This document shows, piece by piece, positions 1,306-27,900 of a stretch of DNA of 64,000 nucleotides. The stretch lies in NCBI GenBank assembly GCA_964591085.1, contig CAZPXH010000006.1, positions 12,873 to 76,872 of the forward strand, written 5' to 3'. The notes under the pieces were generated by a model. It was not told the DNA's origin. It searched no databases and saw only the letters and a program-made list of their open reading frames with translations. The first letter of the stretch is position 1. Every line of letters begins with the position of its first letter. The stretch comes from an uncultured Spirochaetaceae bacterium (GTDB lineage: Bacteria > Spirochaetota > Spirochaetia > DSM-27196 > CAZPXH01). Made by a program: the position numbers and the translations under genes.

Positions 1306-1338
1306 ACACTCAGCGCAGATGCGCACAGGAGGCAAAGG

Positions 1339-10487: not shown

Positions 10488-10865
10488 ATGGCAGAACGAG
10501 TTCTCATTGTGGAGGATCAGTTTCTGGTAGCAATCGCCCTGCAGTCAGCGCTTCAGGACGCCGGATACGATGTCCTTGACCCGGTATCAACGGGGGACGA
10601 TGCGCTTGAGCGGGTCCGCAACGGCCGCGTGGACTGGGCAATCTTGGACGTGAACATCAACGGGAGCCTGGACGGTGTGACCACTGCCCGGCGAATACGT
10701 ACCCTCCAGCCGGTCCACCTGCTCTTTGTCTCCGGATACGCGGATGCCACAATGCGGGAAGACGTACGGGACCTGAGACCGGCGGCAGTGCTAACCAAGC
10801 CTGTTGCGCCGGATGAGATTGTCGCCGTGATTGAAGGCGCCGACCGGAATCGAACCGGTGCATAA
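10488..10865 (+). CDS. Single-domain response regulator (REC only)
   Basis: MAERVLIVEDQFLVAIAL..., ILDVNING, LTKPV. The last 31 nt are antisense to tRNA-Cys. Confidence 0.85.
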   Translation: MAERVLIVEDQFLVAIALQSALQDAGYDVLDPVSTGDDALERVRNGRVDWAILDVNINGSLDGVTTARRIRTLQPVHLLFVSGYADATMREDVRDLRPAAVLTKPVAPDEIVAVIEGADRNRTGA

Positions 10866-10906
10866 AGGTTTTGCAGACCTCTCCCTTACCACTTGGGTAC
10901 GGCGCC
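10835..10906 (-). tRNA. tRNA-Cys (GCA)
   Basis: Hand-folded cloverleaf. Acceptor GGCGCCG/CGGCGCC, anticodon stem GAGGT/ACCTT, loop CTGCAAA (anticodon GCA), T-arm ACCGG-TTCGATT-CCGGT, A13-A22 mismatch, discriminator U. CCA is not encoded. Confidence 0.92.
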
Positions 10907-12023: not shown

Positions 12024-13817
12024 TCAGGATCCCTGGCGATACTCCGCCAGCTTCTCCACCTGCCGCGCAATCACCGAAAGCCCTCCGGCCCAGAAGTCCT
12101 TTGCCTCAATGTCAAAGCCAACTGAGGCCACCACGTCCTTGGCGTTGGCCCTGCCAGTGAGGGTGAGCAGGTCCCGATATCGCTCAGCAAAGCTCGGGCC
12201 TTCCGACTCATAGATGGAGTACAGCCCCAGCCCGAACAGCAGTCCAAAGGCGTAGGGGAAGTTGTAGAAGGCCAGGCCCGGGCGGTAATAGTGACTCTTT
12301 ACGGCCCACATGTAGGGGTGCCGCTCGTCCTCCCGGACAGCCGGGCCATAGGTCCGGGCCTGGGCATCCAGCATCATGGCAGACAGCTCGTCCGGGCTAA
12401 GCTCGTGGTCCGCCCTCTGCTCCATGAGCTCGGACTCAAAGTAGAAGCGGCTGAGGATGTCCACGATGACCTGCGTGGAGCCCTGCAGGCTTGCTTCCAG
12501 AACAGCCAGTCCCTCTTCCGCCGACAGCCTGCCGAGTGCCGAGTTGGTCACCAGAGTCTCACAGAAGATGGAGGCCGTCTCCGCCAGGGTCATGGGATAG
12601 TCCGTCAGAAGCTGGTCGTTTCCGCGGAGAACCCAGTTGTGGTAGGCGTGCCCCAGCTCGTGCGCAAGCGTGGAGAGGCTGTCAAAGCTGTGGTCAAAGT
12701 TGGCAAGGACCCGGATCTGCTCTGCGGCGCCAAAGCCGATGCAGTAGGCTCCGCCGACCTTCCCCTTTCGGGGCTCCGCGTCGATCCACGCAGAATCAAA
12801 TGCGGTACGCGTGGCTGTTGCCAGATCATCCGAGAAGGTGCCGAACTGCTCAAGAATGAAGTCCCGTGCATCAGGGAAACTCCACTTGCGCTCGGATCTG
12901 GAGACGGGCGCAAGGATGTCGTACCAGCACAGGGTTTCCAGACCCAGCATCTGCGCCTTCAGCCCGAGGTACTTGCGGAACGTCGGGAGGGAGTCCTCCA
13001 TCGCAGATATCATCGCCTCAAGCGCGGGACGCGTGATTCGGTTCTGCATGATGGATCGGTCCAGGGTGCGTTCCCAGCCACGGCGTGAGTTGAGCGTGTG
13101 GCTTGTGCCCTTCACGCCGTTCAGGGCGGCGGCAATTGGGATCTCCATCCGCTTCCAGGCATCCAGTTCCAGGCGGTATGCCTTCTGCCGGACCGAACGC
13201 TCGGGATCGCTGGCCAGGGACCGGAGCTGAACAACGGTCTTCTCTTCCCCGGTGTCCTGATTCCAGACGGCGGTAAGCGTGCTGGCAATTGTGGCCTGCA
13301 GCCGGGACCAGGCGTCTCCGCCGCTTCGGTCCAGATCCGCCGCCAACGCCTCTTCCGCGCTGCTCATCTGGTGCCGCTGCTCTTCCAGGGTCTCCTGGAT
13401 GAAGAAGCGATACGGCTCCAGGCGTGGTTCGGCGGCGGCCAAATCAGCAGGGCTGGTTCCGGTCTGAGCCAGTGCATTGCGAAAGTCCACCAGGATGCTG
13501 GAGAGGGGAACCTCAAGCTCCTGCACTCGATTCAGCTGCTTCAGCGGCTCGCTGTCAGTAGTTGCTACACTGTGGGAGGTGTACGCGTAGGCGCCGAGCT
13601 TGCCAGCAAGCCCATCCGCCAGGTTGAGGACCTCAATCACGGAAAGAAGCCATGCAGCGGGATTCTCGGACCGGAGTCGCTCGTCAGACACCGCAACCCT
13701 GGCAGCTTCCACGGCGGCCCTGGCAGCAGCAAGGTCCGCCTCCCACTCGGGCGAGCCCAGGGCTGGATAGACGGAGCTCAGGTCCCAGTGAGGAAGTGTC
13801 TCAGACGAAGAGCTCAT
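12024..13817 (-). CDS. pepF: M3B oligoendopeptidase F
   Basis: HELGHAYH zinc motif and about 600 aa. The start is taken at MSSSSETLPHWDL (13817), which overlaps the ndk 3' end by 17 nt. Alternative ATG at 13847. Confidence 0.88.
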   Translation of the reverse strand: MSSSSETLPHWDLSSVYPALGSPEWEADLAAARAAVEAARVAVSDERLRSENPAAWLLSVIEVLNLADGLAGKLGAYAYTSHSVATTDSEPLKQLNRVQELEVPLSSILVDFRNALAQTGTSPADLAAAEPRLEPYRFFIQETLEEQRHQMSSAEEALAADLDRSGGDAWSRLQATIASTLTAVWNQDTGEEKTVVQLRSLASDPERSVRQKAYRLELDAWKRMEIPIAAALNGVKGTSHTLNSRRGWERTLDRSIMQNRITRPALEAMISAMEDSLPTFRKYLGLKAQMLGLETLCWYDILAPVSRSERKWSFPDARDFILEQFGTFSDDLATATRTAFDSAWIDAEPRKGKVGGAYCIGFGAAEQIRVLANFDHSFDSLSTLAHELGHAYHNWVLRGNDQLLTDYPMTLAETASIFCETLVTNSALGRLSAEEGLAVLEASLQGSTQVIVDILSRFYFESELMEQRADHELSPDELSAMMLDAQARTYGPAVREDERHPYMWAVKSHYYRPGLAFYNFPYAFGLLFGLGLYSIYESEGPSFAERYRDLLTLTGRANAKDVVASVGFDIEAKDFWAGGLSVIARQVEKLAEYRQGS

Positions 13818-14253
13818 TGTAGTTGTCCTCGTAACCCATGACTTCATCTGCGTTGAAGAAACGGCTGATCTCTTCCTCCGCGGTCTCCGGGCTGTCGCTT
13901 GCGTGGATGACGTTCTTGCTGGTGGTAGCTGCGTAGTCCCCGCGAATGGTCCCCGGAAGCGCTTCTTCTACCCGCGTGGCGCCACAGAGCATCCGGACCT
14001 GGCTCACGGCGTCTTCGCCTTCCAGGACCATCGCAACCACGGGGCCGCTGGTGATGTAACCGATGAGTTCGCCGAAGAAGGGTTTGTCGCTGAGATGACC
14101 GTAATGGTTCTCTGCAAACGGTCTGCTGATTGTTATGAGCTTCAACCCGAGGATCCGGAGGCCTTTGCGCTCTACGCGGGTGATTATATCCCCCACCAGC
14201 CGGCGCTGCAGCATGCCGGGCTTCAGCATTGCGAAGGTTCGCTGTCGTGCCAT
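13801..14253 (-). CDS. ndk: Nucleoside-diphosphate kinase
   Basis: MARQRTFAMLKPG...NVIHASDS active-site His motif. 150 aa when started at ATG 14253. The longer ORF-track version is an upstream extension. Confidence 0.93.
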   Translation of the reverse strand: MARQRTFAMLKPGMLQRRLVGDIITRVERKGLRILGLKLITISRPFAENHYGHLSDKPFFGELIGYITSGPVVAMVLEGEDAVSQVRMLCGATRVEEALPGTIRGDYAATTSKNVIHASDSPETAEEEISRFFNADEVMGYEDNYNELFV

Positions 14254-14299
14254 TATCAAATTGTAGCACAGCCACCGGGCCCGTGATAGCTTCGCGGGC

Positions 14300-15787
14300 A
14301 TGCCGTCCCTTCGTTCCCCGCTTGGAGCAACGATCTTCCTTCTGACCGGCGCCAGTCTCTTTGCGCAGGGAGCCAAAGCCCCGCCAGCGGAGACGGATCT
14401 CCCTGACTTCTCGGATGCGCCGGCCACCATTACCGCCGAGTACGACGTTCAGCTTGATCTGGAGCGGGGTAGCCGCTCCCAGCGGTTCCAGCTGCTGGTG
14501 CCGGAAGATGCGTTTGCCATCCACATCGCGCTGGAAGACAGCCCGGCGGACCTGGACCTGCGCCTCCTGGACTCCCGGGGAACGGAGGTCCTGGTTGCCG
14601 AACTTCTGGATTTCAACGAGGAGATCCGCCTCAGCAGGCTGGAGGGTCCTTTCCCCAGCGGAAGGCTGAGCGTGGAGGTGTTCTATCAGCTGTCTGACCT
14701 CCCGATGGTGGACGGCCGGAGGGCCGGGAGCGTTACCGCACGGCTACGGACGCGGATAGACCGGCTGGTGAGCTCCGGCGAACTCCGTGAGGGACGCTGG
14801 ACCGCCGGGGAGCTTTCGCCGGAGTCCGGAATGTTTGCAATGTTCGCCTTCTCCCTGCCGCCGCGTGGCAGCTGGCGCGTGGATCTGGAAAGCGAACAGG
14901 CAGACGTTGATCTCTTCATCAACGCCGGGGAGCTGCCGGACAACTTTCGGGACTCCGAGTGGTCCGCGTTCTCACTCAGGTCCCGGGAATCCATCGTGCT
15001 CGGTCCGGAGAGCGAGCCGCGCGCGGGCGGCGGGAGCTACGAGGTCCTGATTATTGATCAGGTCAACAGGATCTATCCTGTTGACTACCGGATCCGGTTG
15101 GCGCGAGCCGACCAGCCGGACCCCGCCTGGATTCAGCCGCCGCCAATTCCTACTGATGAACGCGGGCTGGACCGCGCGCTTCGGAGCACTGTGGAGCTGT
15201 CAACGGATGGAATCAGCGGCGGGTCCGGTACCATAGTCTCCAGTGACGGGCTGATCCTCACCAACTACCACGTAGTCTCGGACGGTCGGGCTGAAGGTTC
15301 CGGCCCAATCACCGTTGCCGTGAGCTACGATCACCGGCGCCCTCCACTGGAGGTCTTCCGCGCGGAGCTGGTGTGGAGTGACGCGGAGGCGGACCTGGCA
15401 ATCCTGCAAATGACCGAGACCATCGGCGGGGGTCCGCTGCCGCGGAGCTTCCCCTTTACTCCTCTGGGCAATCCGGAGGACCTCCGGATCGGTGAGTCGC
15501 TGTCCATCATCGGCTATCCGTCCATTGGGAGCCGGGGGAGCCGGGTGAGCATCACCCTGGCGGAGGGCCGAGTTTCCGGCTTTGACCTTGCGGGCGGAAT
15601 CGCTTCGGTGAAGACAGACGCTGACATCCACAGCGGGAACTCCGGGGGCGGCGCCCTGGACCGAACGTGGCAGCTGGTAGCAGTTCCAACGGAAGTTGTC
15701 GGCGGGTCGGACGGACAGATCGGTTACACGGTGAGCGTTGCGGTAATTCCGCCGGAGTGGGTCCGGCGCTTTGGGCGGCAGGACTGA
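14300..15787 (+). CDS. Secreted trypsin-like serine protease (S1 family) with N-terminal beta-rich pre-domains
   Basis: Signal peptide (ATIFLLTGASLFAQGA). Triad context TNYHVV, DLAILQ, GNSGGGALD. Two N-terminal segments resemble PPC-type domains (DLDLRLLDSRG, DVDLFINAGELP). Confidence 0.8.
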   Translation: MPSLRSPLGATIFLLTGASLFAQGAKAPPAETDLPDFSDAPATITAEYDVQLDLERGSRSQRFQLLVPEDAFAIHIALEDSPADLDLRLLDSRGTEVLVAELLDFNEEIRLSRLEGPFPSGRLSVEVFYQLSDLPMVDGRRAGSVTARLRTRIDRLVSSGELREGRWTAGELSPESGMFAMFAFSLPPRGSWRVDLESEQADVDLFINAGELPDNFRDSEWSAFSLRSRESIVLGPESEPRAGGGSYEVLIIDQVNRIYPVDYRIRLARADQPDPAWIQPPPIPTDERGLDRALRSTVELSTDGISGGSGTIVSSDGLILTNYHVVSDGRAEGSGPITVAVSYDHRRPPLEVFRAELVWSDAEADLAILQMTETIGGGPLPRSFPFTPLGNPEDLRIGESLSIIGYPSIGSRGSRVSITLAEGRVSGFDLAGGIASVKTDADIHSGNSGGGALDRTWQLVAVPTEVVGGSDGQIGYTVSVAVIPPEWVRRFGRQD

Positions 15788-15790
15788 CCC

Positions 15791-16801
15791 CTAACCCCCA
15801 ACAAACGCAGCCAGTTCCCGGTCCTGCCTGCGGATGAGATCCGCGGCGGCTTCTTCCAGGCAGGCGATGGTCTGGGCACGGGCGTCGTCCATGGACGCAG
15901 AGCAGTCACCAAGCTTGGCCTGGAGCCGGGTATAACGAACGTCACGCGTCTGGGCTAGCACATGTGCGCTGACCTCGGCTTGACCTGCGGCAACCATGGA
16001 GATGAGCGGAACGCCCTTCTCTGTTGACGCCCAGTCCAGAGCACCCCATTCCTTCACCGACTCGTAGGGATAGCCTGGGGACTGACCGGTACCAACTGAC
16101 AGGACCTCATAGCGGCGAGCGGCCGGAAAGCGGCGACGGGCGTCCATCACCGCAAGAAGCGCCGGATCATTGGTTGCCAGGAATCCATCGCTGATGGCAA
16201 AGCTCGCAGCTCCGTCCACGGCCGTCACCCGTACCGGCTCAAAGAAGGTGGGAGCTGCGCTTGTGGCGCGGGCAACGTCCCGGAACAGATAGTCCCCCGG
16301 AGCCCTTAGTTCGGTGTCACGGGCACTTTTCCCACCACAGAACAGCACGGGCCGCATTCGCTCCAGGTCAAAGCCGGTGACCAGTACACCGGTTCTCGCT
16401 CCACTGATCTTCAGGTCACCGAAGTTTTCCCGCAGCACAAACTCAAGGGCCTTGGCGTCATACTTCTCGGTGAAGGCCTGGGCAACAGTCTGGAACTGGC
16501 GAAAGCGCCACTGCGGGAAAATTTGCTTCCCCCGATTGCGATACATGGCAACGAGGTCCGGCACGTCTACCTCGGTGGGGATATCCGGATCCAGGCTTGC
16601 GCGCGGGCGGGCCAGAGCCAGGGCAATCAATCCACCGGTGGAGGTCCCGGCAATGAGGTCAAAGTAGCGAGCAAGGACGCCGCTGTGGCCGGCCCGACGG
16701 AGGTGGGTCTGCAGACGCTGCAGAACCAGGCTGGGAATGATCCCGCGTATGCCACCACCGTCTATGGAGAGGATACGAACTGTTCGTCCGAATCGGAGCA
16801 C
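15791..16801 (-). CDS. Patatin-like phospholipase
   Basis: Oxyanion-hole motif DGGGIRG, nucleophile elbow AGTSTGG (GxSxG), catalytic Asp in SDGFL. Confidence 0.88.
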   Translation of the reverse strand: MLRFGRTVRILSIDGGGIRGIIPSLVLQRLQTHLRRAGHSGVLARYFDLIAGTSTGGLIALALARPRASLDPDIPTEVDVPDLVAMYRNRGKQIFPQWRFRQFQTVAQAFTEKYDAKALEFVLRENFGDLKISGARTGVLVTGFDLERMRPVLFCGGKSARDTELRAPGDYLFRDVARATSAAPTFFEPVRVTAVDGAASFAISDGFLATNDPALLAVMDARRRFPAARRYEVLSVGTGQSPGYPYESVKEWGALDWASTEKGVPLISMVAAGQAEVSAHVLAQTRDVRYTRLQAKLGDCSASMDDARAQTIACLEEAAADLIRRQDRELAAFVGG

Positions 16802-16815
16802 CGGTGGCGAGCGGA

Positions 16816-17259
16816 TCAGGCTCCGCTTTTCAGCTGAAGCAGCGCGTCATTGGTCTCCCGGAAGCGCTTCACCACCACTGGCAGGATGTCCAGGGCAACC
16901 TCCGGATGGCTCTTGAGGAAGGCGTTGAAGTCCCAGGAAACCAGCACCAGGCATTCGGTGTCTGACTCGGCAATCACGCTTGCCGAGCGGGTAGCTCCGT
17001 CCAGGACCGACATTTCCCCAATGACGTCACCGGGTCCGTGCGTGGCAATGACAACCACCGCCCCGTCTTCCGTGTGCTTCTCAACCCGGACCTTGCCGGA
17101 CACAATGACAAACAACCCTTCACCGGGATTCCCCTGGCGCACGATTGTGTCACCAGCGCTGAAGCTCCGATCCCGGCACTGTCGTGCGAGATTGGCGAGA
17201 TATCGCTCCTTGACCCCCCCGAACAGCGGTACCGTGGCGAGGATTTCCTGTGCGTTCAC
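16816..17259 (-). CDS. Stand-alone cyclic-nucleotide-binding (CNB/cNMP) domain protein
   Basis: 147 aa. FSAGDTIVRQGNPGEGLFVIVSGKV... with the phosphate-binding cassette GEMSVLDGATRSASV. No HTH or other domain. Confidence 0.88.
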   Translation of the reverse strand: MNAQEILATVPLFGGVKERYLANLARQCRDRSFSAGDTIVRQGNPGEGLFVIVSGKVRVEKHTEDGAVVVIATHGPGDVIGEMSVLDGATRSASVIAESDTECLVLVSWDFNAFLKSHPEVALDILPVVVKRFRETNDALLQLKSGA

Positions 17260-17285
17260 TCAACGTTCTCCGATCAGCTCAAAGG

Positions 17286-20200
17286 CTATGCGCCGCTGGC
17301 ATTCGCTGTCAACGAAGCGATACGCCCCCGAACTCGGGCAAACACCGGAAGCACCTGAAACTGCCGGCGTGCTTCATCTCCGGGGAGTGCCATCTCCTCG
17401 GCTGCTAAGAGTTCAGCGGCGATTCGTGCGTGCTCCGGGACGGACTCAGCCATCCGAGCGTGGTACAGCAGCAGGTCCCGCCGGGGTAGCAGCACGTTCA
17501 TTCCCACCAGGGTGTCCGCTTCCTCCCGGAAGAATCTGGCATCACCGGCGTTCCCCTGCTCAAGCGCAAGCTCGGACAGGATCACAAGCAGACTCATTAG
17601 CGGGTAATGAGCCGTGTGCCGCAGGCCGAGGGGAAGTGCTTCCATGGCGAGTTGTCCGGCCTTCTCATGATCACCAACCAGGTAGCGCGCCCAGGCCATG
17701 GTACGCAGCGTGTCCAGCGCGCCGAAATCGTTGCCTACCTGGTGCCGATAGAACTCGGCCTGCTGCCAGAGCTCTCCCGCCCTGCGCTCCTGCCCGAGTA
17801 TCCGGCTGGCAGCAGCGGCCATTGCAAAACCCGGAGCCAGGATCTCAGCGCGGACGGGCTCTGCGTGTGTCAGGCGTGTGGCAGACTCAACGGTGAGCGA
17901 GAAGTCGCAGCCCCAGAATGCCGCCATCACCCGGCGGAACTCCACGGCAACGGCGGGGCGTTCGGTGTTGGGATTGCTGTTGCGCGGGAGCACGGAGTCC
18001 GCCTGCTTGATGCAGTCTGCGTACTGCGCACGGGCAAAGCTGATGCTGCAGCGGGTCTCAGTCCGCTCCAACTCAGCTGAGCCCGCGGCAAGGTGTTCCA
18101 TCCGCCGGACAATGCTGTCCGATTCTTCCGTGCGGCCCCGCAGGCACTCGCTGGTTGCCATCAGGCCAAGGAGATTGAGCTCCAGCTGCAGCTCGGTCTG
18201 GATGGCGCGGTAGTAGTGCAGGGCCTTGCGTCCGGTCACCAGGGTCTTCTTGAACGCATAGCTCTGCAGGTTGAAGCCGGTCATCAGGTGATAGGCGCGC
18301 GCGAGGAACGCAGGACTCCGGTGCTCCACTGCAATTGCCAGGAGTCTGCGCAGCACGTCGTCCGCCGGCTCGGTCCGTCCGGCGTTGAACAGAAGCGCGG
18401 CCTTGGTAAACAGCAACTGAAAGCGCAGCTGGACGTCGCTGATGCGCTCCTCCTCCAGGAGTTCATCAATGATTGCGGGGAACTCCGGGTTGACCGTAGC
18501 GGTCCGGGATGCAACGAGCACCTCGGCAGCAGCACGAAAATCCTCCGCGCGGAGCAGGTGCCGGATCAGGCGCATGGTGTTGGGCCGCGCCTGCTGCCGC
18601 ATGCGGTCCGCCACGATCCGGTGGAGAATTCGCTTGTTGTAGTTCAGCAGCGTGCTGTAGACGGCCTGCTTGAACAGATCGTGGCGGAAGGCGTAGACCA
18701 CGCCCCGGCGCTCCAGGATTCCGCTGCCAACAAAGTCACCGAGCGCATCATCCACCAGGTCAGTCGGGCTGCCGGTCTGCTCCTGCATGAAGATGGCATC
18801 CTCTCGGGTGAAGTTGCGGAAGAACACGGCAAGCTTAGTCATCAGCTCTCGCCGAGGGATGGAGAGATGCTCCAGCCGGGCGAGGACGATGTTCTGGATG
18901 CTGCCGGGCATGTCCTCGTCCGCATCTGCCTCCTGCAGATAGGCGAGGTACTCCCGGATGAATAGCGGATTCCCCTGGGCAGCGCGGAGCACCCGCGGAA
19001 CCAGCTCCGGCCGGTCCTCACCGGTCCAGAGGCGTTCCACCAGGGCTCGGGATTCATCCTCAGACAACGGGCCGAGTGTTCGGACTTCCAGGTCGGGAAA
19101 GACCCCGTGAAGACCCGCCTCATCGCTCCGGTCCGCCAGCAGGAAGAACGGCCGGGCGCTGGTGTTGTCAAAGTAGAAGCGGAAGAAGGCCCGGCTCGGC
19201 TGCTCCAGCAGGTGGGCATTGTCCAGAAAGACAATCGGGCTGTACGGAGACTCGGGGCTGGGTGCAACCAGCTGCTCAAACAGGCGGTACAGGACAACCA
19301 CGTCTTCGGTGGTGGCATCGCTCCTGTCTCCGGAGACAATGCTTGCAAATCGCGCAGCGTTCTCCCGGTCAACACCGAGCGCCTCCGCGGCGCGCCTTGC
19401 GGAATCGGAGTCAATCCGGCGTTCCAGCCCCATCGCATCCAGCAACAGGTCAATGACCAGGGCGTAGGGCCTGGTTCGGTAGCGTCGCGCTACCCCGTGG
19501 AGGACCGGCGCGTTGAAGTCGGGAAATCGGCGAATCCGGGACAGCACCTGCCTGACCGTTGCGGTCTTCCCGATTCCGGGCTCGCCTCGCAGCACAAATC
19601 CGCGTGGCTCGGCGGGGTCGTGACGGAGGTACTCCCTGACAATCTCCGCCACCAGCGTCTCGCGCCCGACGAAGGGACCGGACTCGTGCTCAGCATCGGG
19701 AACCGTGTCCTCCACCGGGTAGGCAACCACGGGTTCGTCCACTCCCTTGAGTTCCAGGGTCAGCTCGTCGCCAAAGCGGAACGCAGGCCCAACCCGGTTG
19801 CGGGTTGCGCGGGTGACCAGGATTGCTCCCGGAGACGCGGCGGACTGCACGCGGTTTGCCACGGTCATCGCGTGGCCGGTAACCACGTTGTAGGTACCTC
19901 GCTTGCCGGTAGCAATCAGGCCGGTGTGCACGGCAGTGCGGAACAACAGCTCCTGACGGTCCGGCGAAACGGGAACCTCGTGGCCGAGCAGCTCCGAAAC
20001 CCGGGTCTCAGAAACCCAGCGGTGAAACTCAAGCGCCGATGTCACCGCGTGCTGCGCATCTTCTTCCTGGACTTCCGGAACGCCGAACACCGACACCATC
20101 GCGTCCCCGATGTACTTTTCCACCGTTCCGCCATTACGGGCGACAATGTCGGTGTAGGTGCCAAACACCCGGGACATGAGGCGGTCAGTGTCCTCCGGGT

Positions 20201-20303
20201 CCAGCTGCTCGGATAGCTCGGAGAACCCGACGAGGTCTGAGACAACGATGCTGACGGTCCTGCGCTCGCCGGCCCTGAGGTTGCCGGATGCCCCGTCGGA
20301 CAC
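17286..20303 (-). CDS. Class III adenylate/guanylate cyclase domain fused to a STAND/AAA_16 NTPase and a helical (TPR-like) C-terminal region
   Basis: Cyclase core VSIVVSDLVGFS...GGTVEKYIGDAMVSVFG...TYNVVTGHAMTVANRVQS. Walker A GEPGIGKT and Walker B-like IVFLDNAH. About 550 aa of helical repeats follow. No C-terminal HTH seen. Confidence 0.88.
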   Translation of the reverse strand: MSDGASGNLRAGERRTVSIVVSDLVGFSELSEQLDPEDTDRLMSRVFGTYTDIVARNGGTVEKYIGDAMVSVFGVPEVQEEDAQHAVTSALEFHRWVSETRVSELLGHEVPVSPDRQELLFRTAVHTGLIATGKRGTYNVVTGHAMTVANRVQSAASPGAILVTRATRNRVGPAFRFGDELTLELKGVDEPVVAYPVEDTVPDAEHESGPFVGRETLVAEIVREYLRHDPAEPRGFVLRGEPGIGKTATVRQVLSRIRRFPDFNAPVLHGVARRYRTRPYALVIDLLLDAMGLERRIDSDSARRAAEALGVDRENAARFASIVSGDRSDATTEDVVVLYRLFEQLVAPSPESPYSPIVFLDNAHLLEQPSRAFFRFYFDNTSARPFFLLADRSDEAGLHGVFPDLEVRTLGPLSEDESRALVERLWTGEDRPELVPRVLRAAQGNPLFIREYLAYLQEADADEDMPGSIQNIVLARLEHLSIPRRELMTKLAVFFRNFTREDAIFMQEQTGSPTDLVDDALGDFVGSGILERRGVVYAFRHDLFKQAVYSTLLNYNKRILHRIVADRMRQQARPNTMRLIRHLLRAEDFRAAAEVLVASRTATVNPEFPAIIDELLEEERISDVQLRFQLLFTKAALLFNAGRTEPADDVLRRLLAIAVEHRSPAFLARAYHLMTGFNLQSYAFKKTLVTGRKALHYYRAIQTELQLELNLLGLMATSECLRGRTEESDSIVRRMEHLAAGSAELERTETRCSISFARAQYADCIKQADSVLPRNSNPNTERPAVAVEFRRVMAAFWGCDFSLTVESATRLTHAEPVRAEILAPGFAMAAAASRILGQERRAGELWQQAEFYRHQVGNDFGALDTLRTMAWARYLVGDHEKAGQLAMEALPLGLRHTAHYPLMSLLVILSELALEQGNAGDARFFREEADTLVGMNVLLPRRDLLLYHARMAESVPEHARIAAELLAAEEMALPGDEARRQFQVLPVFARVRGRIASLTANASGA

Positions 20304-20306
20304 CTG

Positions 20307-20897
20307 TTATCCTTTCGAGATCAGCGATTCCAGCTGGGGACGCAGTTGCTCCAGGACCCCGCCGTACTGCTGCTCAATCTGGCCCATGTAGTGATTCAGC
20401 GCCTGCGCGAACTCCGGATCACTGGACGGATCCAGGCGCACGCGCTGGCCGGTCTGGGCGTAGACCTGCTCCTCCCGCTGGCGGATCCGTGGCTCAAACT
20501 GCTCCCGGAGCTGCTCAACCAGGCGCTGACGTTCCTTGAGCCATCCATCGTAGAGCTGCTGCAGCTGCTCAAACACTATCCGTGCAGTTTCGGCGTCGCC
20601 GGTGACCGTGCCAAACACGCGCTGCAGATCCGGCAGTCTGCCGGCGGCCAGGCGATCCACCGGGAGTGCTATGTTTCGCATGAAGGCCTCTGCCAGGCCG
20701 TCTCGGACCGCGGCTCGATCTCCAGCTGGAACCTTCTGAAGTTCCTGCTTGAGGTCAAGGGACGGGTCTTCCATGCCGCGGGACAGGAGTCGCATCCCCT
20801 GCTCTGACAGCTCCCGCCGCCGCAAGCCTTCCCGGTCAACTTCCACGTCCCTGGTCTTTTCCAGCGCAAGCTCAAGCGCGCTCTTGATCAGTGCCAT
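20307..20897 (-). CDS. Hypothetical helical protein
   Basis: 196-aa ORF, charged and helical (MALIKSALELALEKTRD...). Coding-like composition. Its stop is 3 nt from the cyclase start. Confidence 0.55.
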   Translation of the reverse strand: MALIKSALELALEKTRDVEVDREGLRRRELSEQGMRLLSRGMEDPSLDLKQELQKVPAGDRAAVRDGLAEAFMRNIALPVDRLAAGRLPDLQRVFGTVTGDAETARIVFEQLQQLYDGWLKERQRLVEQLREQFEPRIRQREEQVYAQTGQRVRLDPSSDPEFAQALNHYMGQIEQQYGGVLEQLRPQLESLISKG

Positions 20898-20930
20898 ATT
20901 CTCCCTCTGCCTGTTGGTGCAATCTCTACT

Positions 20931-21533
20931 TCAGTCACAGACCAATACCTGATCCACCGGCCAATCGTCATCAGTGAGCGGCAGTTCGTCCAGCACCTGG
21001 AAACGGTAGACCGGAGCAATGCTGCGCCCGCGCCCGGCAACACTGCAAAGAAAGCGGTCGTAGTAGCCGCCGCCGCGCCCCAGTCTGCCACCGCCCGGCG
21101 TCACGGCAACGGAGGGCACAATGATGAGCACTGGGCCGGATCCATCCCACGCTGCGGCATCCGACCGCGGGGCGGGAATTCCGACGCGGTCCCTGCTCAA
21201 CCCCGTGGCGTCCTGCGGACAACGCCGAAACTCCATCCCCATTTCAGTGACTGCGGGCAGAAACACGGGGATTCCCCATTGATGTGCCTCGTCCAGGAAG
21301 AGTTCCGGGTTCACCTCTCCGTCGGTAGATGCATAGGCCAGTACCGCCCGGTACTCGTGCCCAAGGAGATCCGGTGCTGCCGCTGCAAGGCTTGCCGCAG
21401 CGCGGGCGCGGATTGACGGGTGAAGGCGTCGGCGCTGGCTCCGAAGGGCCTGTCGGATGCTTGCGGCGTTGTCCCTTGTGTCTTGCCTGGTGCCTCCCAT
21501 GGAGTCCTCCCGTGAGTCACTGCGTCCGCTCAT
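20931..21533 (-). CDS. 5-formyltetrahydrofolate cyclo-ligase family protein
   Basis: GRGGGYYDRFL motif and IRQALRSQRRRL N-terminal pattern. 4-nt overlap with the upstream VWA gene. Confidence 0.78.
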   Translation of the reverse strand: MSGRSDSREDSMGGTRQDTRDNAASIRQALRSQRRRLHPSIRARAAASLAAAAPDLLGHEYRAVLAYASTDGEVNPELFLDEAHQWGIPVFLPAVTEMGMEFRRCPQDATGLSRDRVGIPAPRSDAAAWDGSGPVLIIVPSVAVTPGGGRLGRGGGYYDRFLCSVAGRGRSIAPVYRFQVLDELPLTDDDWPVDQVLVCD

Positions 21534-24500
21534 TGAATGGCCATTCCCAGATCATGGATAAGCCGTGGCAGCAGGTCCGGCAGCTGGGCCGCGGAACGGC
21601 ACCGAATTGCGCTGCTTGCTTCCTTCCGGAAGCTCTCAAAGTAGGACTCCGCCGCAGGGTCCACGTTGATGTAGATCAAACGGATTCCGGCCATCCGGCA
21701 TTCCCGCATTGCCATCAGGGTATCCTCCACGGCGGGTGTGCCATCGTAGTTCGGCGCGTTGGGCATACCGTCGGAGATCAGAAGGAAGTACTGGACTTCG
21801 GCCGGTTTCTGGCTGAGGCGGTCGGTGACCCATCGAATGAAGTCTCCGTCCCGGTTGGCGTTATCCGCCACAAGGGCGCTGATGCTCTTTGCGGTCTGCG
21901 GCAGGTAGATGTTGGTGGAGGTAATGCTGTTGAACCCGTAGATCTGAACCGGAACTCCCAGATACCCGAAGGCGTCTGCAAACAGCATGGCGAAGTGCTT
22001 TTCCATGTCCAGCACGCTAACGGGACCGTCCTGCTCCGGGATGAGCGCCGACGTGCTTCCGGACACGTCCAGCCCGATAACCAGGCGGGCGTCCTTTCGT
22101 TCTTCTCCGGGGTGGAGCAGAACATCCTGGGATCTGTCTCCCTGGAAGTCCGCAAGAACCTCAAGCAGGACGTCCATGTCCCACTCGTCGCCAATGCTTG
22201 AACGATCAAGCTCAGATTCATCCCGGTACAAAAGGTTGTGGATAAGGCCACGCAAGCGCTGGGAGACTCCGGCGTAGACTTGGTGGCGCGAGAGGAAATC
22301 CGGGTCCACGGCGTTTATGGCAAACTCGCGGACCTCACTGATCTTCAGTCGGCGCCGTGTCGCGGGATCCCAGGAGTGAACGTTCACCACACCCGGTTCC
22401 TTCGCTGACTGACCACCGGGGTCCGGTGCGGGTTCGGAATGACTCTGCTCCGCTTCCACGCTGGCAAGGACGCTGTCCAGTTCCGGGCTGCGGGTGCGCA
22501 TCTCGGAGAGCTGTTTCTGCCGGTGTCCGGAGTGATAGTCGGCGGCGGTATGGTTCATGTCGTCCCGGATGTTTGCGGCATCCTCGCCTGACTCGGACCT
22601 GGACGAGAGAAGCTCGGTCTCCGATGTCTGGAATCGCTCCGGAAAGGCGTTGGCCTCCCGGTAGAGGTCAGCAAGGTCTTGTTCCGAGCGGACGGTCCTG
22701 CCACAGCGGGCCTCCGGTCGGCCGACGGTCCCACCGTTGGGTATCCGAGGAAGCCTGGGCATTTCAGAACTCCGGGATCCCGGTCGGTCGCTGGCAGTCC
22801 GCTCCTGGGGCGAGAGGGAGGCAAGGTCAGGCAGTCTCCCGCCGGATCCGCCCGCGAGGGGCAGGAGGAGGTGGTAGAGATCAGTGGCGATTCCCATGGC
22901 TGCAGCGGGATTTTTGGTTGGCATCATCCGAATTCGCTGCAGCGAGCGCGCCAGTGCATCCCCGAGGTGCATGACCTGGTCAGAGCGCTGCAGCGGGATG
23001 TCCATGAAGGTGGAGACTGCCTGGGTCCAGGGTGCGTCCGAGCGCATGCGCTGACCACCGGTGTATAGCTGGTCCCAAATCCAACCCACGCTGGCATCAA
23101 TGAGGTTGGATGCCTGGCTCTCGTCCAGGAACCACTGGTGCGCAGCTTCCATCAGCGCAGCAATTTGTCCGTGCACCTGCTGCTCCTCTAGCCAGCGCTC
23201 AATCCGCACGTCTTCCACCACGTTGTAGAGGAAGTGGTACAGCCCGGGAGCCCGCGAAGCGGAGATCAGTGGCCAGAAGTTGACCGTGAAACTCCCGGCC
23301 AGCAGATGTCCGGCCTCATGGAGTGCCAGGAACACGTACATCGTGAGGTTTCGGTTGCCTTCCAGTACCTCCGGATCGTCCCGGAAGAATGAGATGCTGG
23401 ACGGCAGATAGATCGCCGTTCCTTCCGTCTTTGCCCAGTCCGAGGAGTACACCGGAACGGTCCCAACAAGCGGGAGAAGGGCCTCCATGACATAGGGCCG
23501 CGCATCCCGGAAGTGAATGGCCCACGGAGCACGGGCATCAGCCTCTTCACCGATTCGGCTTCGGTTGCGTTCCCATGTCCGCTGCAGGTGCTCGGCGTAG
23601 GCCTCGAGGTCGGCGGGGTCCAGTACTGACAACGCAGCAAACACCTCATCCACAATCGCCGCGGACTCCGCGATAGTCCGCAGAACTGCAAGGTGGTACT
23701 CCCCTCCAGCAAAGCGGCTGGTCCACCGCCCCCAGAGCCGGTCCCAGATCCAGGTCGTGGCTCTGGAAATGGCCACACTATCGTCCTGCACAAGTCTTCC
23801 AGACCTGTCGCGAACGATCGGGCCGACACGGATGCCGCCGCCGTCCATCTCCGCAAGCTGGTCAACCTTTCGCTTCAGCGCGGAGTGCCCGGAGCGACTG
23901 TTCGTCTCTCCCGCGCGCTGGAACAGCACAATCAGGTCCCTGTAGATTGCGGTCTGGAGGTACTCCCGCATCGCCTGGCTCTGGTCATGAATGAGCAGGT
24001 CCCGGCGGAAACGAGCGAGACGGGAAAGCCGGGATATCGGCAGGGCCGGATCCGTGAGAATGGTAAGGATGCTGGAGCGGACCTGATTGCCCGCAAAAGC
24101 CCTCGGCACGTCCCCGGTCTTGCAGGCAACACCTTCCTCCGCGATCAGGGCGAACAAGCCCTCGTCATCCGCCATTCGGGAAAGCGCCCTGCGCGTGCGT
24201 GGTTGCAGGAAGAAATCAATGACCGCCGGCAGGTGTGCCGGGGACACCGAGAGTGCGGTTGCAGCGAGAGACCGGGACTGTTCATCCGGCTGTGAGGCCC
24301 AGACTTCACAGAAGGTGTTGAGCGTGTCCGGTGTGAAGTTCAGGTCACGCAGCACCAGGTCTATTGCGCCGGCAAGCACTCGGCTGAGGCTGGTCAACGC
24401 CTGCCGCCAGGCCGGGCTCGAAAGCATCCGCAAAACCTGCCGAACCCGCGGACGGGAGGCCTCTCCTCGTACGGCTGCAATCGCAGCCTCAAGGAGGAGG

Positions 24501-25120
24501 GTCCGCAAGGTGCTTGAGGTCTCCACCACCGGAGGCAAGCCCGGCTCTTCAGAGAGCAGGTCAATGAACCGCCGGACCTCGTAGATCTCTGCAGTCCGGC
24601 AGGCGTCAGCAATGAACTGGACCGTTGCCGCACGGGTACGCTTTGCCCTCGCGGGGAGCCGCTGCAACAGCTGCCGGAAGGCCGGAAGTCCGACGACCCG
24701 CACAAACTGCTCGGCCGCCTGCGTACTTTGGACCGCAAGACCCATGGCAATGCGATCCGAGTCTCGAGCGGCCTGCTCATCCCCGAAGCGGCCGCGCCCG
24801 AGCTCCAGCACCGCGCGGTAGGCCGCACTGCCGGAAAAGCGTACGAGCCAGTCCCGGAGGGGGTCCTGCTCCGGCAGCGAGAGCAGAACCAACAGCAGGC
24901 GGCCGAGATGCTCGACGCCCAGCCCGCTCCGCCGCAGGCAACGATGCGCGTGGTCTCGCAACGCAGGGTGCCGGAGGAGAGATCTCAGTCGGTCGGCGCG
25001 TTGCGGCTCATCCGGCGTGGCCACCTTCCCCGCCAGCTGCTCTGCCTGCAGACGGTCTACCTGCAGCTCAGCCTGCAGGATCTCAGCGCACGCGGAAATC
25101 GGCCCGGAGCGGTCAGGCAC
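21530..25120 (-). CDS. Very large VWA-domain protein (NorD/CbbO-like core with a long N-terminal helical extension)
   Basis: C-terminal VWA with MIDAS DVSGS (nt 22055-22069) and ...LLISDGMPN. Central LALHEAGH (HEAGH at nt 23306-23320) plus VVEDVRIERW, resembling the NorD/CbbO core. About 550 N-terminal residues of Leu/Arg/Ala-rich helical repeats. Confidence 0.8.
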   Translation of the reverse strand: MPDRSGPISACAEILQAELQVDRLQAEQLAGKVATPDEPQRADRLRSLLRHPALRDHAHRCLRRSGLGVEHLGRLLLVLLSLPEQDPLRDWLVRFSGSAAYRAVLELGRGRFGDEQAARDSDRIAMGLAVQSTQAAEQFVRVVGLPAFRQLLQRLPARAKRTRAATVQFIADACRTAEIYEVRRFIDLLSEEPGLPPVVETSSTLRTLLLEAAIAAVRGEASRPRVRQVLRMLSSPAWRQALTSLSRVLAGAIDLVLRDLNFTPDTLNTFCEVWASQPDEQSRSLAATALSVSPAHLPAVIDFFLQPRTRRALSRMADDEGLFALIAEEGVACKTGDVPRAFAGNQVRSSILTILTDPALPISRLSRLARFRRDLLIHDQSQAMREYLQTAIYRDLIVLFQRAGETNSRSGHSALKRKVDQLAEMDGGGIRVGPIVRDRSGRLVQDDSVAISRATTWIWDRLWGRWTSRFAGGEYHLAVLRTIAESAAIVDEVFAALSVLDPADLEAYAEHLQRTWERNRSRIGEEADARAPWAIHFRDARPYVMEALLPLVGTVPVYSSDWAKTEGTAIYLPSSISFFRDDPEVLEGNRNLTMYVFLALHEAGHLLAGSFTVNFWPLISASRAPGLYHFLYNVVEDVRIERWLEEQQVHGQIAALMEAAHQWFLDESQASNLIDASVGWIWDQLYTGGQRMRSDAPWTQAVSTFMDIPLQRSDQVMHLGDALARSLQRIRMMPTKNPAAAMGIATDLYHLLLPLAGGSGGRLPDLASLSPQERTASDRPGSRSSEMPRLPRIPNGGTVGRPEARCGRTVRSEQDLADLYREANAFPERFQTSETELLSSRSESGEDAANIRDDMNHTAADYHSGHRQKQLSEMRTRSPELDSVLASVEAEQSHSEPAPDPGGQSAKEPGVVNVHSWDPATRRRLKISEVREFAINAVDPDFLSRHQVYAGVSQRLRGLIHNLLYRDESELDRSSIGDEWDMDVLLEVLADFQGDRSQDVLLHPGEERKDARLVIGLDVSGSTSALIPEQDGPVSVLDMEKHFAMLFADAFGYLGVPVQIYGFNSITSTNIYLPQTAKSISALVADNANRDGDFIRWVTDRLSQKPAEVQYFLLISDGMPNAPNYDGTPAVEDTLMAMRECRMAGIRLIYINVDPAAESYFESFRKEASSAIRCRSAAQLPDLLPRLIHDLGMAIQ

Positions 25121-26318
25121 GCTTGGGTACCGAGAAGTCCGTGTTCAGGCGGGTTGCTCCGGTGAACAGCCCCAGAGCCCGCGCGAGAGTTGAGACCAGC
25201 GCCAGGCTGGTCATACTTGTCATCTTCCGGTCCCGGTAGTGGCCGTAGCAGGTCTGGTCAACAACCAGGCGGGTGGCTATGGACTGTGCCAGGGCGCCCA
25301 CCATGCCATGCTCCCGGAGATAGTCGTGCACCACAAGGGCTGCTGAGACGATCCGAACCCCCGAGCGGTGGACGCTGAGCAGCTGGGCATCCTCCTGCCT
25401 GTGCAGTTCCGAGAGGCCAAGCTCCTGGATCAGTGGTGAGGTGCCGTTCTCAGAGAGTTCCTCCACAATTGTGACCAGGCGGGAGAGCTGCTGTCCAAGC
25501 TCGGCGGTGGAGAGGACTCGAGCTGTGGCCATCTCCTGCAGTCTCGCGCCCCGGTTCTCTGGATCGTGGACGCGATAGACCCAGGCCGGAGCGTGGGAAT
25601 CCGCTGGCGTGTTGGCAAGGCTGTCATACCACCGGGTACCGGCACCATCACGGCGGAGGTCAAGGAATCTCCCGTCATCGGCGATGGCCCGCGTTCCCAG
25701 GCTCAGAGCGGCATCCCGCGGGGAAGGGAGCTCTTCGTTTCGCAGGCGGGCGGATCGCTGCTGACTCACAAAGCCCAGGAAGCGAGCGTCCCAGGCGCGG
25801 AAGTTCAGGTGGACAAATCGGTCAGCAACCGATTCCTCCAGGTCCCGGGAGGTGATTGACCGGGACGGATTATAGGAAATCGTTGTCCAGAACCCCTCGG
25901 TGGCCTGGACGATTACCCCGTCAATTCGGTCTATGCTGCGTCGGTCGTCAATGGCGGAGTTCAGCCGCTTCTGCACATCCTCTTTCAGCAGGTTGAACTC
26001 GTCCGCGTAGAAGATTCCTCCGGCTTCCATTGCCTGAACCAGGGGCCCATTGCGATACACCGTGACAGTTGCTTCGCCGTCCCGCTCCAGCGCGGGATAG
26101 CTGATGATCTGGCTCTCCCCGGTACGCGCCGAGCACGTCTTTGCAAACAGGGGTGCGGCCAGAATCCTTGCCACCTGTCGCACACACTCTGTCTTGCCGG
26201 TACCGGGCGGCCCACTAAGGGCGGCGTGCAGCCCGTACTGGCGGCAGATCAGGAGAAGCTGGAGCTCGTCCAGGCCTTCCGGGTACAGCTGATTGGCAAT
26301 GTAGCTGATCCGCTTCAT
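25113..26318 (-). CDS. MoxR/CbbQ/NorQ-like AAA+ ATPase (AAA_5) with a C-terminal extension
   Basis: Walker A GPPGTGKT and Walker B IFYADEFN. About 200 extra C-terminal residues. 8-nt overlap with the VWA gene. Confidence 0.85.
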   Translation of the reverse strand: MKRISYIANQLYPEGLDELQLLLICRQYGLHAALSGPPGTGKTECVRQVARILAAPLFAKTCSARTGESQIISYPALERDGEATVTVYRNGPLVQAMEAGGIFYADEFNLLKEDVQKRLNSAIDDRRSIDRIDGVIVQATEGFWTTISYNPSRSITSRDLEESVADRFVHLNFRAWDARFLGFVSQQRSARLRNEELPSPRDAALSLGTRAIADDGRFLDLRRDGAGTRWYDSLANTPADSHAPAWVYRVHDPENRGARLQEMATARVLSTAELGQQLSRLVTIVEELSENGTSPLIQELGLSELHRQEDAQLLSVHRSGVRIVSAALVVHDYLREHGMVGALAQSIATRLVVDQTCYGHYRDRKMTSMTSLALVSTLARALGLFTGATRLNTDFSVPKRA

Positions 26319-26899
26319 GCGCCGGCCCCAGGGTTCAGTTCCGGGTGCCCGCGGAAATAGCGCTGCAGAAACGCAAGCCCGGCAAGCATGATGGAGGACT
26401 CGTCAAACTCGGGAGTTCCGCTGAGCAGATCGGCGAGGGGAAGCCACAGGGGATCCGCTGCTTCATTCGGGTCCAGAGACTGCGGCCCTCTATCCAGTGG
26501 CTGTGTTGACAGGAAGGTGTAGACCCGGTTGGTCATGAGCGCCGGGTTGGGACTGGTCTGCCCAATCTGATGCAGCGCGCCGCAGGTCCAGCCGGTCTCC
26601 TCCCGCAGTTCCCGGCGCGCAGCACTTTCCCCATCCTCGGCAGGGTCAACGACACCCCCGGGGAACTCCAGGCTGTGGGCTTTGGAGCCGTGACGCCATT
26701 GCCGAACCAGGAGCACCTGCGCTCCCCGGAGCAGAATCACGTGCGCCCAGTCCGGCGCCTCCAGCACAAAGAAGGAAGCGGATCTGCCCGCAGGATGCGT
26801 TCGCTGCTGCTCCATTACGGAGAAAACCGGTGCGCGGAAGCGGAGGTGTGATGCTGTGGTAGTCCACGGGCGATCCATGGCAGCTGCATGGTACGTCAT
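26315..26899 (-). CDS. NUDIX hydrolase
   Basis: Nudix box [23 protein letters not shown]. 4-nt overlap with the AAA+ gene. Confidence 0.85.
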
Positions 26900-26967
26900 C
26901 CGGAGTCCGTGAGACGACCCACCACCGAATTGCCGACGGGTACCGTGGGCGGCTATGCTTCGGCCTC

Positions 26968-27900
26968 ATGCTTGAGCAGCTTCACGAGATTACCGACGCC
27001 ATCGTGGAGTCGTACCGCCAGATCGGCGGAATCAACAACCTGGACGGTCCGAATCTCCCCTCCCGCCGCGGAATTGAACTGATCATCGCGGATCTTGAGT
27101 CACTCATCTTTCCCGGTTACCGGGTTGGGGACGCGCTGGAGCCGGAGGACATCAAGTACACCATCGCGGAGCGTATTACGCGCCTTTCACGCAACCTCGC
27201 GAACGAACTGCAGCGGAGCCTCTGCTTCCGACGGCGGAGCGAGGGCTCACCCCTGTGTGCGGGCCACGGGATTGGCGGGCGGACAAGCCGGTGCCGCAGC
27301 GAGGGAGAAGAACTGGCCGTGGAGATTCTGCGGCTTCTCCCGGCCATCAGGGAGCGAGTGCAGCTGGATGTGGAAGCTGCCTTCCAGGGTGACCCAGCGG
27401 CAAGAAGCCGGGAGGAAATCATCCTCGCCTATCCAGGGGTGGAGGCAATCATCATCCACCGCATCGCCCACGAGCTGTGGGTCCGCAATGTTCCTCTGAT
27501 CCCGCGAATGATGAGCGAGTACATCCACGGAAAAACCGGAATTGACATCCATCCCGCCGCGCAGATCGGTGACTACTTCTTTATTGACCACGCCACAGGG
27601 GTGGTCATCGGCGAAACAACGGTGATCGGTAACCGGGTGAAGATCTATCAGGGTGTCACGCTTGGCGCGCTGAGCGTGCGCAAGGAGGAAGGTCACCGGA
27701 AGCGACACCCCACCATTGAGGATGATGTAACGATCTATGCACACGCAACGATCCTTGGTGGGGACACGGTGGTTGGCCGCGGTTCAATCGTGGGGGGAAA
27801 CGTTTGGCTGACACGCTCTGTGTCGGCCGGCAGCAAGATTTACCACCGGGCGGAAATTGATCACAAAGCAGCAGATGAGCTGGAACGGCCGGGAGTCTGA
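26968..27900 (+). CDS. cysE: Serine O-acetyltransferase (long form)
   Basis: Left-handed beta-helix hexapeptide region [43 protein letters not shown]-like N-terminal helical domain. Confidence 0.85.

Follow-up and report, generated by a model that had tools for sequence, protein, structure and literature searches.

STAND-fused nucleotide cyclases (STAND, signal transduction ATPases with numerous domains) are abundant in bacteria, and the input that their ATPase and repeat modules sense and the destination of their signal are essentially unknown. In the stretch of DNA analyzed here (64,000 nt of a contig from an uncultured Spirochaetaceae bacterium; hereafter the window), a gene for such a protein is followed by a gene for a stand-alone cyclic nucleotide-binding (CNB) protein and then by a gene for a patatin-like phospholipase. 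Do these three products belong to one signaling pathway, and would this pathway serve defence or physiology? Our analysis indicated that the cyclase and the CNB protein very probably form a functional unit, and that the locus is most likely a lineage-specific, chromosomally fixed cyclic nucleoside monophosphate (cNMP) operon of free-living Spirochaetota, with cyclic AMP (cAMP) as the likeliest nucleotide, and no mobile defence module. This family offers a clean case, i.e., one orthologue per locus, an adjoining receptor gene, gene fusions, and named carriers such as Spirochaeta africana and Salinispira pacifica.

The cyclase, the CNB protein and the lipase

An earlier note on this DNA, made from the letters alone, had described three consecutive minus-strand genes separated by 26 nt (cyclase/CNB) and 14 nt (CNB/patatin). 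The three open reading frames (ORFs) are intact, their coordinates are exactly those given there, and every motif quoted was found in the translations. With the gene that precedes them and the domains of the cyclase, they are as follows:

20307..20897, minus strand: DUF6657 gene (196 aa; Pfam PF20362), 3 nt upstream of the cyclase gene
17286..20303, minus strand: cyclase-STAND gene (1005 aa; Pfam Guanylate_cyc and AAA_16, AlphaFold2, Foldseek)
19704..20264, minus strand: cyclase catalytic domain, aa 14-200 (Asp23, Asp67, Lys63 and Arg151 present; Asn139 and Thr147 substituted)
19140..19676, minus strand: STAND NTPase core, aa 210-388 (Walker A GEPGIGKT, aa 240-247; Walker B around Asp361)
17289..18506, minus strand: all-helical TPR/MalT-like putative sensor, aa ~600-1005 (AlphaFold2, PF17874 in orthologues, 6mfv fold)
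16816..17259, minus strand: stand-alone CNB gene (147 aa; Pfam cNMP_binding)
15791..16801, minus strand: patatin-like phospholipase gene (336 aa; Pfam Patatin)

The N-terminal part of the 1005-aa protein matched Guanylate_cyc (PF00211; aa 14-191, 56 bits against a cut-off of 21.9). When it was aligned with HMMER to CyaC (1wc0) and Cya2 (2w01), the metal sites fell on Asp23 and Asp67 and the purine-specifying Lys on Lys63, and Thr147 and Arg151 occupied the positions of the transition-state Asn and of the Arg, respectively. We also aligned 34 cyclase members of the family, extracted from related loci. D23, the stretch EKYIGDA (aa 62-68, which includes Lys63 and Asp67) and R151 were invariant in all 34, and the domain matched cyclase structures in its fold (see below), which bore out the assignment of a class III cyclase domain with both metal-binding Asp residues and the purine-specifying Lys. 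Position 139 was Asp in 22 members, Glu in 8, Asn in 2, Arg in 1 and Lys in 1, i.e., an acidic residue in 30 of 34; the Asn was found only in the window protein and in its 83%-identical relative, the Arg in S. africana, and the Lys in one other member. Position 147 was more mixed (S15/A9/N6/T3/H1). The replacements that had been proposed from a hand alignment, Asn for the canonical Asp and Thr for the transition-state Asn, were thus upheld. Judged by these residues, the family appears to be of the adenylyl (Lys/Asp) type and to have largely given up the canonical transition-state Asn, and Asn139 of the window cyclase looks like a recent change. Since the adenylyl-type Lys and Asp/Glu pair is kept in 30 of the 34 members, cAMP is the likely product of the family. 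Hence, the earlier opinion that the product is not predictable was too cautious for the family, although it is a fair one for this Lys/Asn protein.

The cyclase domain is followed by an AAA_16 match (aa 210-388, 48 bits against a cut-off of 32.6), in which G243 and G245 were invariant and K246 and D361 nearly invariant among 45 orthologues. An AlphaFold2 model of the whole protein (predicted local distance difference test [pLDDT] 86.6, predicted template modeling score [pTM] 0.72) showed the cyclase domain and then an NTPase core into which helical and winged-helix-like segments are inserted; from about aa 600 onward the chain folds into helical repeats as far as its C-terminus. This agrees with the STAND-like NTPase and the helical repeats that had been read from the sequence. 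The absence of a C-terminal helix-turn-helix (HTH) was likewise confirmed, in that no Pfam HTH match was found in the 1005-aa protein and the model ends in repeats. Foldseek ranked 6mfv, a STAND-TPR protein from an archaeon, first (E 1.6e-13), the cyclase domain gave template modeling (TM) scores, normalized by target length, of 0.85-0.92 to CyaC, Cya2 and RhGC, and several orthologues carried precomputed PF17874 (TPR_MalT) matches. About 110 full-length orthologues were detected with E values from 1e-220 to 1e-89, the next proteins following at 1e-43 with 55% coverage, and nearly all orthologues with a source name were from Spirochaetota. The cyclase-STAND protein therewith appears to define a sharply bounded orthologous family that is restricted to this phylum.

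The second protein carries cNMP_binding (PF00027; aa 31-118, 91 bits) as its only domain, and its phosphate-binding cassette (aa 81-93, nt 16981-17019) has G81, E82, R91 and A93 invariant among 28 homologues, as had been expected of a CNB-only protein with an intact cassette; the motif RFRET of the C-terminal helix (R132-T136) was also invariant in this set. Binding of a cNMP is therefore predicted from the cassette. Among named proteins, the CNB protein matched cAMP receptors best (CRP, and the CNB domain of mycobacterial Pat). Homologues of ~147 aa, 52-66% identical, were found across Spirochaetota, including S. africana and S. pacifica. The databases name such homologues 'Crp/Fnr family transcriptional regulator' (P0133, P0136, P0141, P0165 and others). 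The DNA-binding HTH of CRP/FNR factors was not found by Pfam in the window protein, which showed the CNB domain only, and this naming of CNB-only proteins, i.e., of 147-aa 'regulators' without a DNA-binding domain, is probably a systematic over-annotation.

The third protein matched Patatin (PF01734; aa 11-217, 64 bits), with DGGGIRG at aa 14-20, the nucleophile Ser54 in GTSTG, and Asp205 (followed by Gly206) in DGF. These catalytic residues were invariant in its relatives (sets of 27 and 44), so that the assignment of a patatin with all catalytic motifs held. The PADLOC model of the phospholipase effector of CBASS (cyclic oligonucleotide-based antiphage signaling system) matched over the full length (1.9e-62), and NCBIfam CBASS_lipase scored 166.6 bits, below its cut-off of 200. 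By sequence, the closest solved relative was the plant patatin Pat17 (115 bits, full length), and the CapV entries scored 66-85 bits. The AlphaFold2 model (pLDDT 89.3) gave TM scores of 0.80 to plant patatin, 0.77-0.78 to CapV and 0.72 to CapE. As modeled, the protein would be a compact single-domain enzyme of the patatin/CapV/CapE group that has no sensor domain.

Conservation of the cyclase-CNB pair and place of the lipase gene

A genome scan with the CNB alignment yielded 80 species-level loci (species-representative genomes), and the upstream neighbour of the CNB gene was determinable in 73 of them; 6-10 kb on either side of each anchor gene were viewed. In 35 of these 73 loci, almost all of them from Spirochaetota, the CNB gene was immediately preceded by a cyclase-STAND gene of the same strand. 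The gap was often just 3 nt, and the pairing was retained even where the flanks differed. Where a cyclase-linked locus offered sufficient downstream sequence, the CNB gene was in most cases followed by NDK or by a convergent gene for a trypsin-like protease. Other direct upstream neighbours of the CNB gene were an MscS-family channel (21/73 loci, same strand), a RecN-like protein (5/73) and P-II (2/73). The 21 MscS-linked loci are:

L035, L039, L041, L044, L046, L050, L055, L057, L060, L062, L067-L069, L072, L074-L078, L081 and L084

In these loci the CNB gene, whose product is 49-57% identical to the window CNB protein, lies directly downstream of the channel. In the neighbour-joining tree they form one derived clade nested in the cyclase-linked radiation, and therefore the cyclase link is ancestral and the MscS link was one later switch. 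The idea that the CNB protein has repeatedly paired with different effectors was rejected on this ground, and a single switch lends limited support to the CNB protein as a 'modular adaptor'. The RecN-like loci (L088-L092), from Deltaproteobacterial metagenome-assembled genomes (MAGs), have a 159-aa CNB-only protein (38-44% identical) directly after a RecN-like SMC_N protein; here a stand-alone CNB protein recurs with yet another partner.

Gene fusions bear on the same link. P0315 (1157 aa; L180, 6001-9474) is an orthologous cyclase-STAND protein, 36% identical over 947 aa, that carries a C-terminal CNB domain. Because this domain and the 147-aa family share only 26% identity, P0315 represents an independent fusion and no merge of the neighbouring genes; the same value led us to reject an assembly artefact, which the fragmented genes of the L180 contig had brought into consideration. 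That the cyclase and the stand-alone CNB protein are functionally linked is thus well supported, since their adjacency is conserved (35/73 loci) and an independent cyclase-STAND-CNB fusion exists. In L180 the P0315 gene is followed by UDG and PriA, and L182 has the same context without the CNB domain; the P0268 locus reads cyclase-UDG-PriA, without a CNB gene. The second fusion, P0344 (1211 aa, L181), joins DUF6657 to the N-terminus of the cyclase-STAND protein, and its gene is followed by the usual CNB-protease-NDK-PepF-GpsA. As a separate gene, DUF6657 immediately preceded the cyclase gene in 15 of the 35 species-level loci with a linked cyclase, and also in L001, L009 and L179. Its 196-aa product is charged and, as judged from its sequence, probably helical; a literature search found nothing on it. 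Each fusion is a single case, and together they point to a complex of DUF6657, cyclase-STAND and CNB, in which DUF6657 would be a probable fourth partner of the operon.

The pair belongs to a longer block, MTHFS-DUF6657-cyclase-CNB-(patatin)-protease-NDK-PepF-GpsA, whose synteny is retained in relatives with GpsA and NDK only ~60% identical to those of the window. Identities to L179, L181, L073 and L026 were 59-60% for GpsA, 59-65% for NDK, 44-50% for PepF, 53-59% for CNB (up to 66% in other relatives) and 31-38% for the cyclase; those of DUF6657 were 36-45%, and that of the patatin was 43% (37% to S. africana). The block is inherited vertically, and by these values the trio diverges no faster than its housekeeping neighbours. 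In the window itself, eight co-directional genes run from 26899 down to 15791 (NUDIX, AAA_5 ATPase, a 1196-aa protein, MTHFS, DUF6657, cyclase, CNB and patatin), and all of them overlap or are separated by 33 nt or less, so that close spacing is no peculiarity of the trio. A promoter/terminator scan of 13500-27500 was uninformative, with counts at or below the shuffled expectation.

The lipase gene had a different distribution. The order cyclase-CNB-patatin was found in seven loci (the window, L001/L002, L009, L021, L026, L027 and L179), with a CNB-to-patatin gap of 2-19 nt, whereas among the 30 determinable species-level cyclase-CNB loci the patatin gene followed the CNB gene in only 3 (L021, L026 and L027). 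The gene order therefore proved conserved for the cyclase-CNB pair and not for the patatin as a third gene, and of the CNB-patatin link that had been proposed earlier the conserved order in two clades stood, but the patatin is no constant member. One close patatin relative (87% identical) has the same three genes and the same flanks, and all other matches were at or below 44%. L179 reads DUF6657-cyclase-CNB-patatin-protease-NDK-PepF-GpsA, with a patatin 43-44% identical, and L009 (S. africana) has a colinear MTHFS-DUF6657-cyclase-CNB-patatin (cyclase 36%, CNB 63%, patatin 37% identical). The seven loci form two clusters in the cyclase tree. Because the patatin gene occupies the same slot of the block in both clusters, the simplest history would be an ancestral three-gene arrangement from which the patatin was lost repeatedly. 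Two loci of metagenomic patatin relatives, with a CNB-type gene 2-3 kb from the patatin gene, were set aside as coincidental, one with LepA in between (L099) and one in which the gene encodes a true Crp regulator (L132). In L006, a Spirochaetes MAG with the patatin relative P0020 (8001-9035), a gene with Guanylate_cyc and AAA_16 domains (1014 aa) starts 8 kb downstream (16949-17035); the sequence covered stops before the end of this gene and before any CNB gene that may follow it.

A proposed pathway and its rivals

The reading that we favour, with a probability of about 0.5, is a full pathway that comprises a STAND-gated cyclase, a CNB receptor, DUF6657 and, in some lineages, a lipase output. 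The 1005-aa protein would act as a STAND switch, in which a ligand is bound by the helical repeats of the C-terminal sensor, the AAA_16 NTPase exchanges its nucleotide and so drives oligomerization, and oligomerization brings the N-terminal class III cyclase domains together as active dimers. The cyclic nucleotide made, most likely cAMP, would be read by the dedicated 147-aa CNB protein encoded directly downstream. In a minority of lineages, the present one included, the pathway would probably act on the membrane through the patatin/CapV-type phospholipase, which the CNB protein would gate once it has bound the nucleotide, and the lipase activity would remodel membrane lipids in a presumably physiological role. 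DUF6657 would probably be part of the same complex. If the CNB protein does control the lipase, a mononucleotide would switch a CapV-like patatin by way of a receptor that is a protein of its own, and this would bear on how defence effectors relate to housekeeping enzymes.

Several observations weigh against this reading. Gene order in the block is conserved even between the unrelated NDK, PepF and GpsA, and therefore adjacency by itself is weak evidence of coupling. The transition-state Asn is variable throughout the cyclase family and is Thr here, position 139 is Asn in the window protein, and the catalytic activity and the product of this cyclase are predictions only. The patatin gene is absent from 27 of the 30 determinable species-level cyclase-CNB loci, so that the CNB protein must have another role or partner. 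L177/L178 have the order MscS-DUF6657-patatin with neither a cyclase nor a CNB gene, and their patatin groups with the CNB-linked patatin of L021 in the neighbour-joining tree; similarly distant patatins (P0003, P0020 and P0016) are solitary, and none of 80 metagenomic patatin relatives adjoins a CNB or cyclase gene. Finally, CapV binds cyclic GMP-AMP (cGAMP) directly at protomer interfaces, is activated by filament formation and has no separate sensor domain (PMC12480259), and since patatins of this type bind the nucleotide themselves a receptor in trans is not required.

In one alternative, which we consider doubtful although it deserves attention, the cyclase-STAND protein, the CNB protein and probably DUF6657 are self-contained, the CNB protein acting on the cyclase, as a feedback or regulatory subunit, or on a distant target, and the patatin is a common housekeeping lipase with no tie to them beyond its place in the operon. 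P0315, which puts a CNB domain on the cyclase itself, the 27 loci in which the pair occurs without a patatin, the related patatins that stand alone or beside DUF6657, and the unrelated MTHFS and NUDIX genes, spaced as tightly in the same operon, all agree with it; moreover, the MscS-linked clade, in which no patatin occurs, conserves the C-terminal helix motif of the CNB protein to the same degree. What it leaves unaccounted for is that, where linked, the patatin gene always comes immediately after the CNB gene (2-19 nt) in two separate clades, that CNB-patatin fusions occur in other organisms, e.g., NTE/PNPLA6, PNPLA7 and their bacterial homologues (PMC9025805, PMC5704489), and that several members of the patatin/CapV/CapE structural group are nucleotide-switched. 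Alternatively, the product of the cyclase could activate the patatin directly, as cGAMP activates CapV, the CNB protein being a parallel receptor and no intermediary. The full-length match to the PADLOC CBASS phospholipase model, the TM scores to the CapV structures and the architecture of CapV, with its ligand at the protomer interfaces and no separate sensor domain, would fit this scheme, which we nevertheless judge improbable: the NCBIfam score is below the cut-off, in sequence and fold the protein resembles plant patatin, an enzyme without nucleotide gating, no less than it resembles CapV, the ligands of CapV and CapE are cyclic dinucleotides and not cNMPs, and most patatin relatives have no cyclase nearby.

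A role in anti-phage defence or abortive infection, which the earlier note had raised by analogy with CBASS and with Pycsar (the pyrimidine cyclase system for resistance to phages), would have the STAND module sense a phage protein, the cyclase make an alarm nucleotide, and the CNB protein release a membrane-destroying lipase. Antiviral STAND (Avs) proteins do have the same layout, with an effector, a STAND NTPase and a repeat sensor, and Foldseek returned Avs3, as a generic STAND fold match only (E 1.3e-9). Some domains also matched components of known systems: with PADLOC, a part of the cyclase matched PycC (40 bits, aa 13-90), the CNB protein matched PycTIR models in their CNB part (4.9e-19), and the lipase matched the CBASS model given above. 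Immune cNMP cyclases have been predicted from long branches and conflict-type neighbourhoods in a 2026 preprint, and one predicted immune clade is fused to NACHT or AP-ATPase STAND modules (10.64898/2026.08.12.744502). However, PADLOC gave no Avs model (E<=0.01), no CD-NTase (cGAS/DncV-like nucleotidyltransferase) and no complete Pycsar model on the trio; no CD-NTase was matched in the trio or its flanks, and none was suggested by the 25 Pfam families listed for the rest of the window. The flanking genes, which are housekeeping in character, had no credible defence-model matches, and no neighbouring defence or mobile genes were found, so that the locus does not sit in a defence island as far as PADLOC and the flanks tell. 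The rest of the window encodes DNA polymerase I, FtsK, aldehyde ferredoxin oxidoreductase, Fe-hydrogenase, ABC transporters, GGDEF/EAL proteins and FliS. PADLOC matches on the other 38 window ORFs (RTasPolA, SspH, E1-E2, mad3/mad8) were discarded as probably due to housekeeping domains; Pfam found DNA polymerase A, FtsK, ThiF, response regulators and HATPase in this 38-ORF set.

The distribution of the family argues in the same direction. No plasmid orthologues were found, the only plasmid relatives being rhizobial proteins at about 28% identity, and no viral contig encoded a relative in a viral search. The block occupies one chromosomal site, has been passed on vertically in a large part of Spirochaetota, and diverges at the pace of housekeeping genes, the CNB protein being as conserved as NDK, whereas immune cyclases are defined as fast-evolving and patchy; as far as these sequences tell, the family follows the opposite pattern to the immune cyclases of the preprint. 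In addition, about 90% of the lineages lack the patatin that would have to act as the killer. The defence framing thus did not survive, and we regard such a role as unlikely.

There is also a broader version of the pathway, to be taken as tentative, in which the stand-alone CNB protein would be a trans-acting cAMP adaptor that connects the STAND-gated cyclase to adjacent membrane effectors, i.e., to the patatin or, in other lineages, to MscS. If this were true, a lipase of the CBASS-effector type would be controlled via a separate receptor in normal membrane or osmotic physiology, and the system could be the housekeeping counterpart of membrane-attack systems triggered by nucleotides, or such a system in domesticated form.

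Neighbouring genes and comparison with known systems

Within the eight-gene run, the AAA_5 (MoxR/dynein-type) ATPase (401 aa) overlaps by 8 nt the 1196-aa protein gene (21530-26318, minus strand). The 1196-aa protein had no match in Pfam, NCBIfam or PADLOC; a 1187-aa counterpart occupies the same position in L001, and the pair was not seen in the more distant relatives checked. Downstream of the trio, a convergent trypsin/HtrA-like protease ORF (14300-15787, plus strand), whose first ~300 aa are without a family match, is overlapped at its start by the NDK ORF as called (13801-14430, minus strand). The NDK family match covers only aa 61-198 of this 209-aa ORF, and its true start is therefore probably near 14250. 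A tRNA-Cys (GCA) gene (10835-10906, minus strand) lies immediately downstream of gpsA. Elsewhere in the window, a Moco (molybdenum/tungsten cofactor) riboswitch (1195-1317, plus strand; 66.7 bits against a gathering score of 36) overlaps the start of a called ORF (1291-3144, plus strand), and the aldehyde ferredoxin oxidoreductase mentioned above is, by the Pfam scan, also encoded in the window.

A literature search found no description of this operon, and each of its parts can be compared with known systems. The mycobacterial Rv0386/Rv1358/Rv2488c-type proteins and their homologues on rhizobial megaplasmids also combine a class III cyclase at the N-terminus with an AAA_16 NTPase and helical repeats, the rhizobial plasmid proteins being ~28% identical over 56-65% of the window cyclase-STAND protein. 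Rv0386 likewise deviates from the canonical Lys/Asp pair, with Gln/Asn. In contrast to the Rv0386 type, the window cyclase has no C-terminal LuxR-type HTH, belongs to a separate orthologous family, and has a dedicated CNB gene downstream. With antiviral STAND proteins the likeness is one of generic fold, to Avs3, no Avs model being matched by the trio.

Pycsar and the cGMP-producing Pucsar share the logic of a mononucleotide cyclase and a CNB-containing receptor. Their effectors have the CNB domain fused to a TIR or transmembrane domain, whereas the window receptor is a bare CNB domain, and the window cyclase differs in being STAND-fused and, by its family residues, apparently of the purine (Lys/Asp) type. 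Their distribution in defence islands also contrasts with the vertical, housekeeping-like locus described here. In bCNG channels (bacterial, gated by cyclic nucleotides) an MscS-like channel carries a fused C-terminal CNB domain, and the MscS-CNB loci, an arrangement that does not occur in the window, resemble a split version of them (PMC13591265). The NTE-type proteins combine CNB and patatin in one chain, and the CNB domains of NTE were reported not to be essential for activity (PMC9319352); in the window the two are separate genes, and the lipase is a short one of the patatin/CapV type. With CapV and CapE of CBASS, this lipase shares the single-domain fold (TM ~0.77 to CapV) and the full-length PADLOC match. 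Unlike a CBASS operon, that of the window has no CD-NTase, and its patatin scores below the NCBIfam cut-off and is equally close to plant patatin. The signal of CBASS is a cyclic oligonucleotide, whereas the candidate signal of the Spirochaetota operon is a cNMP.

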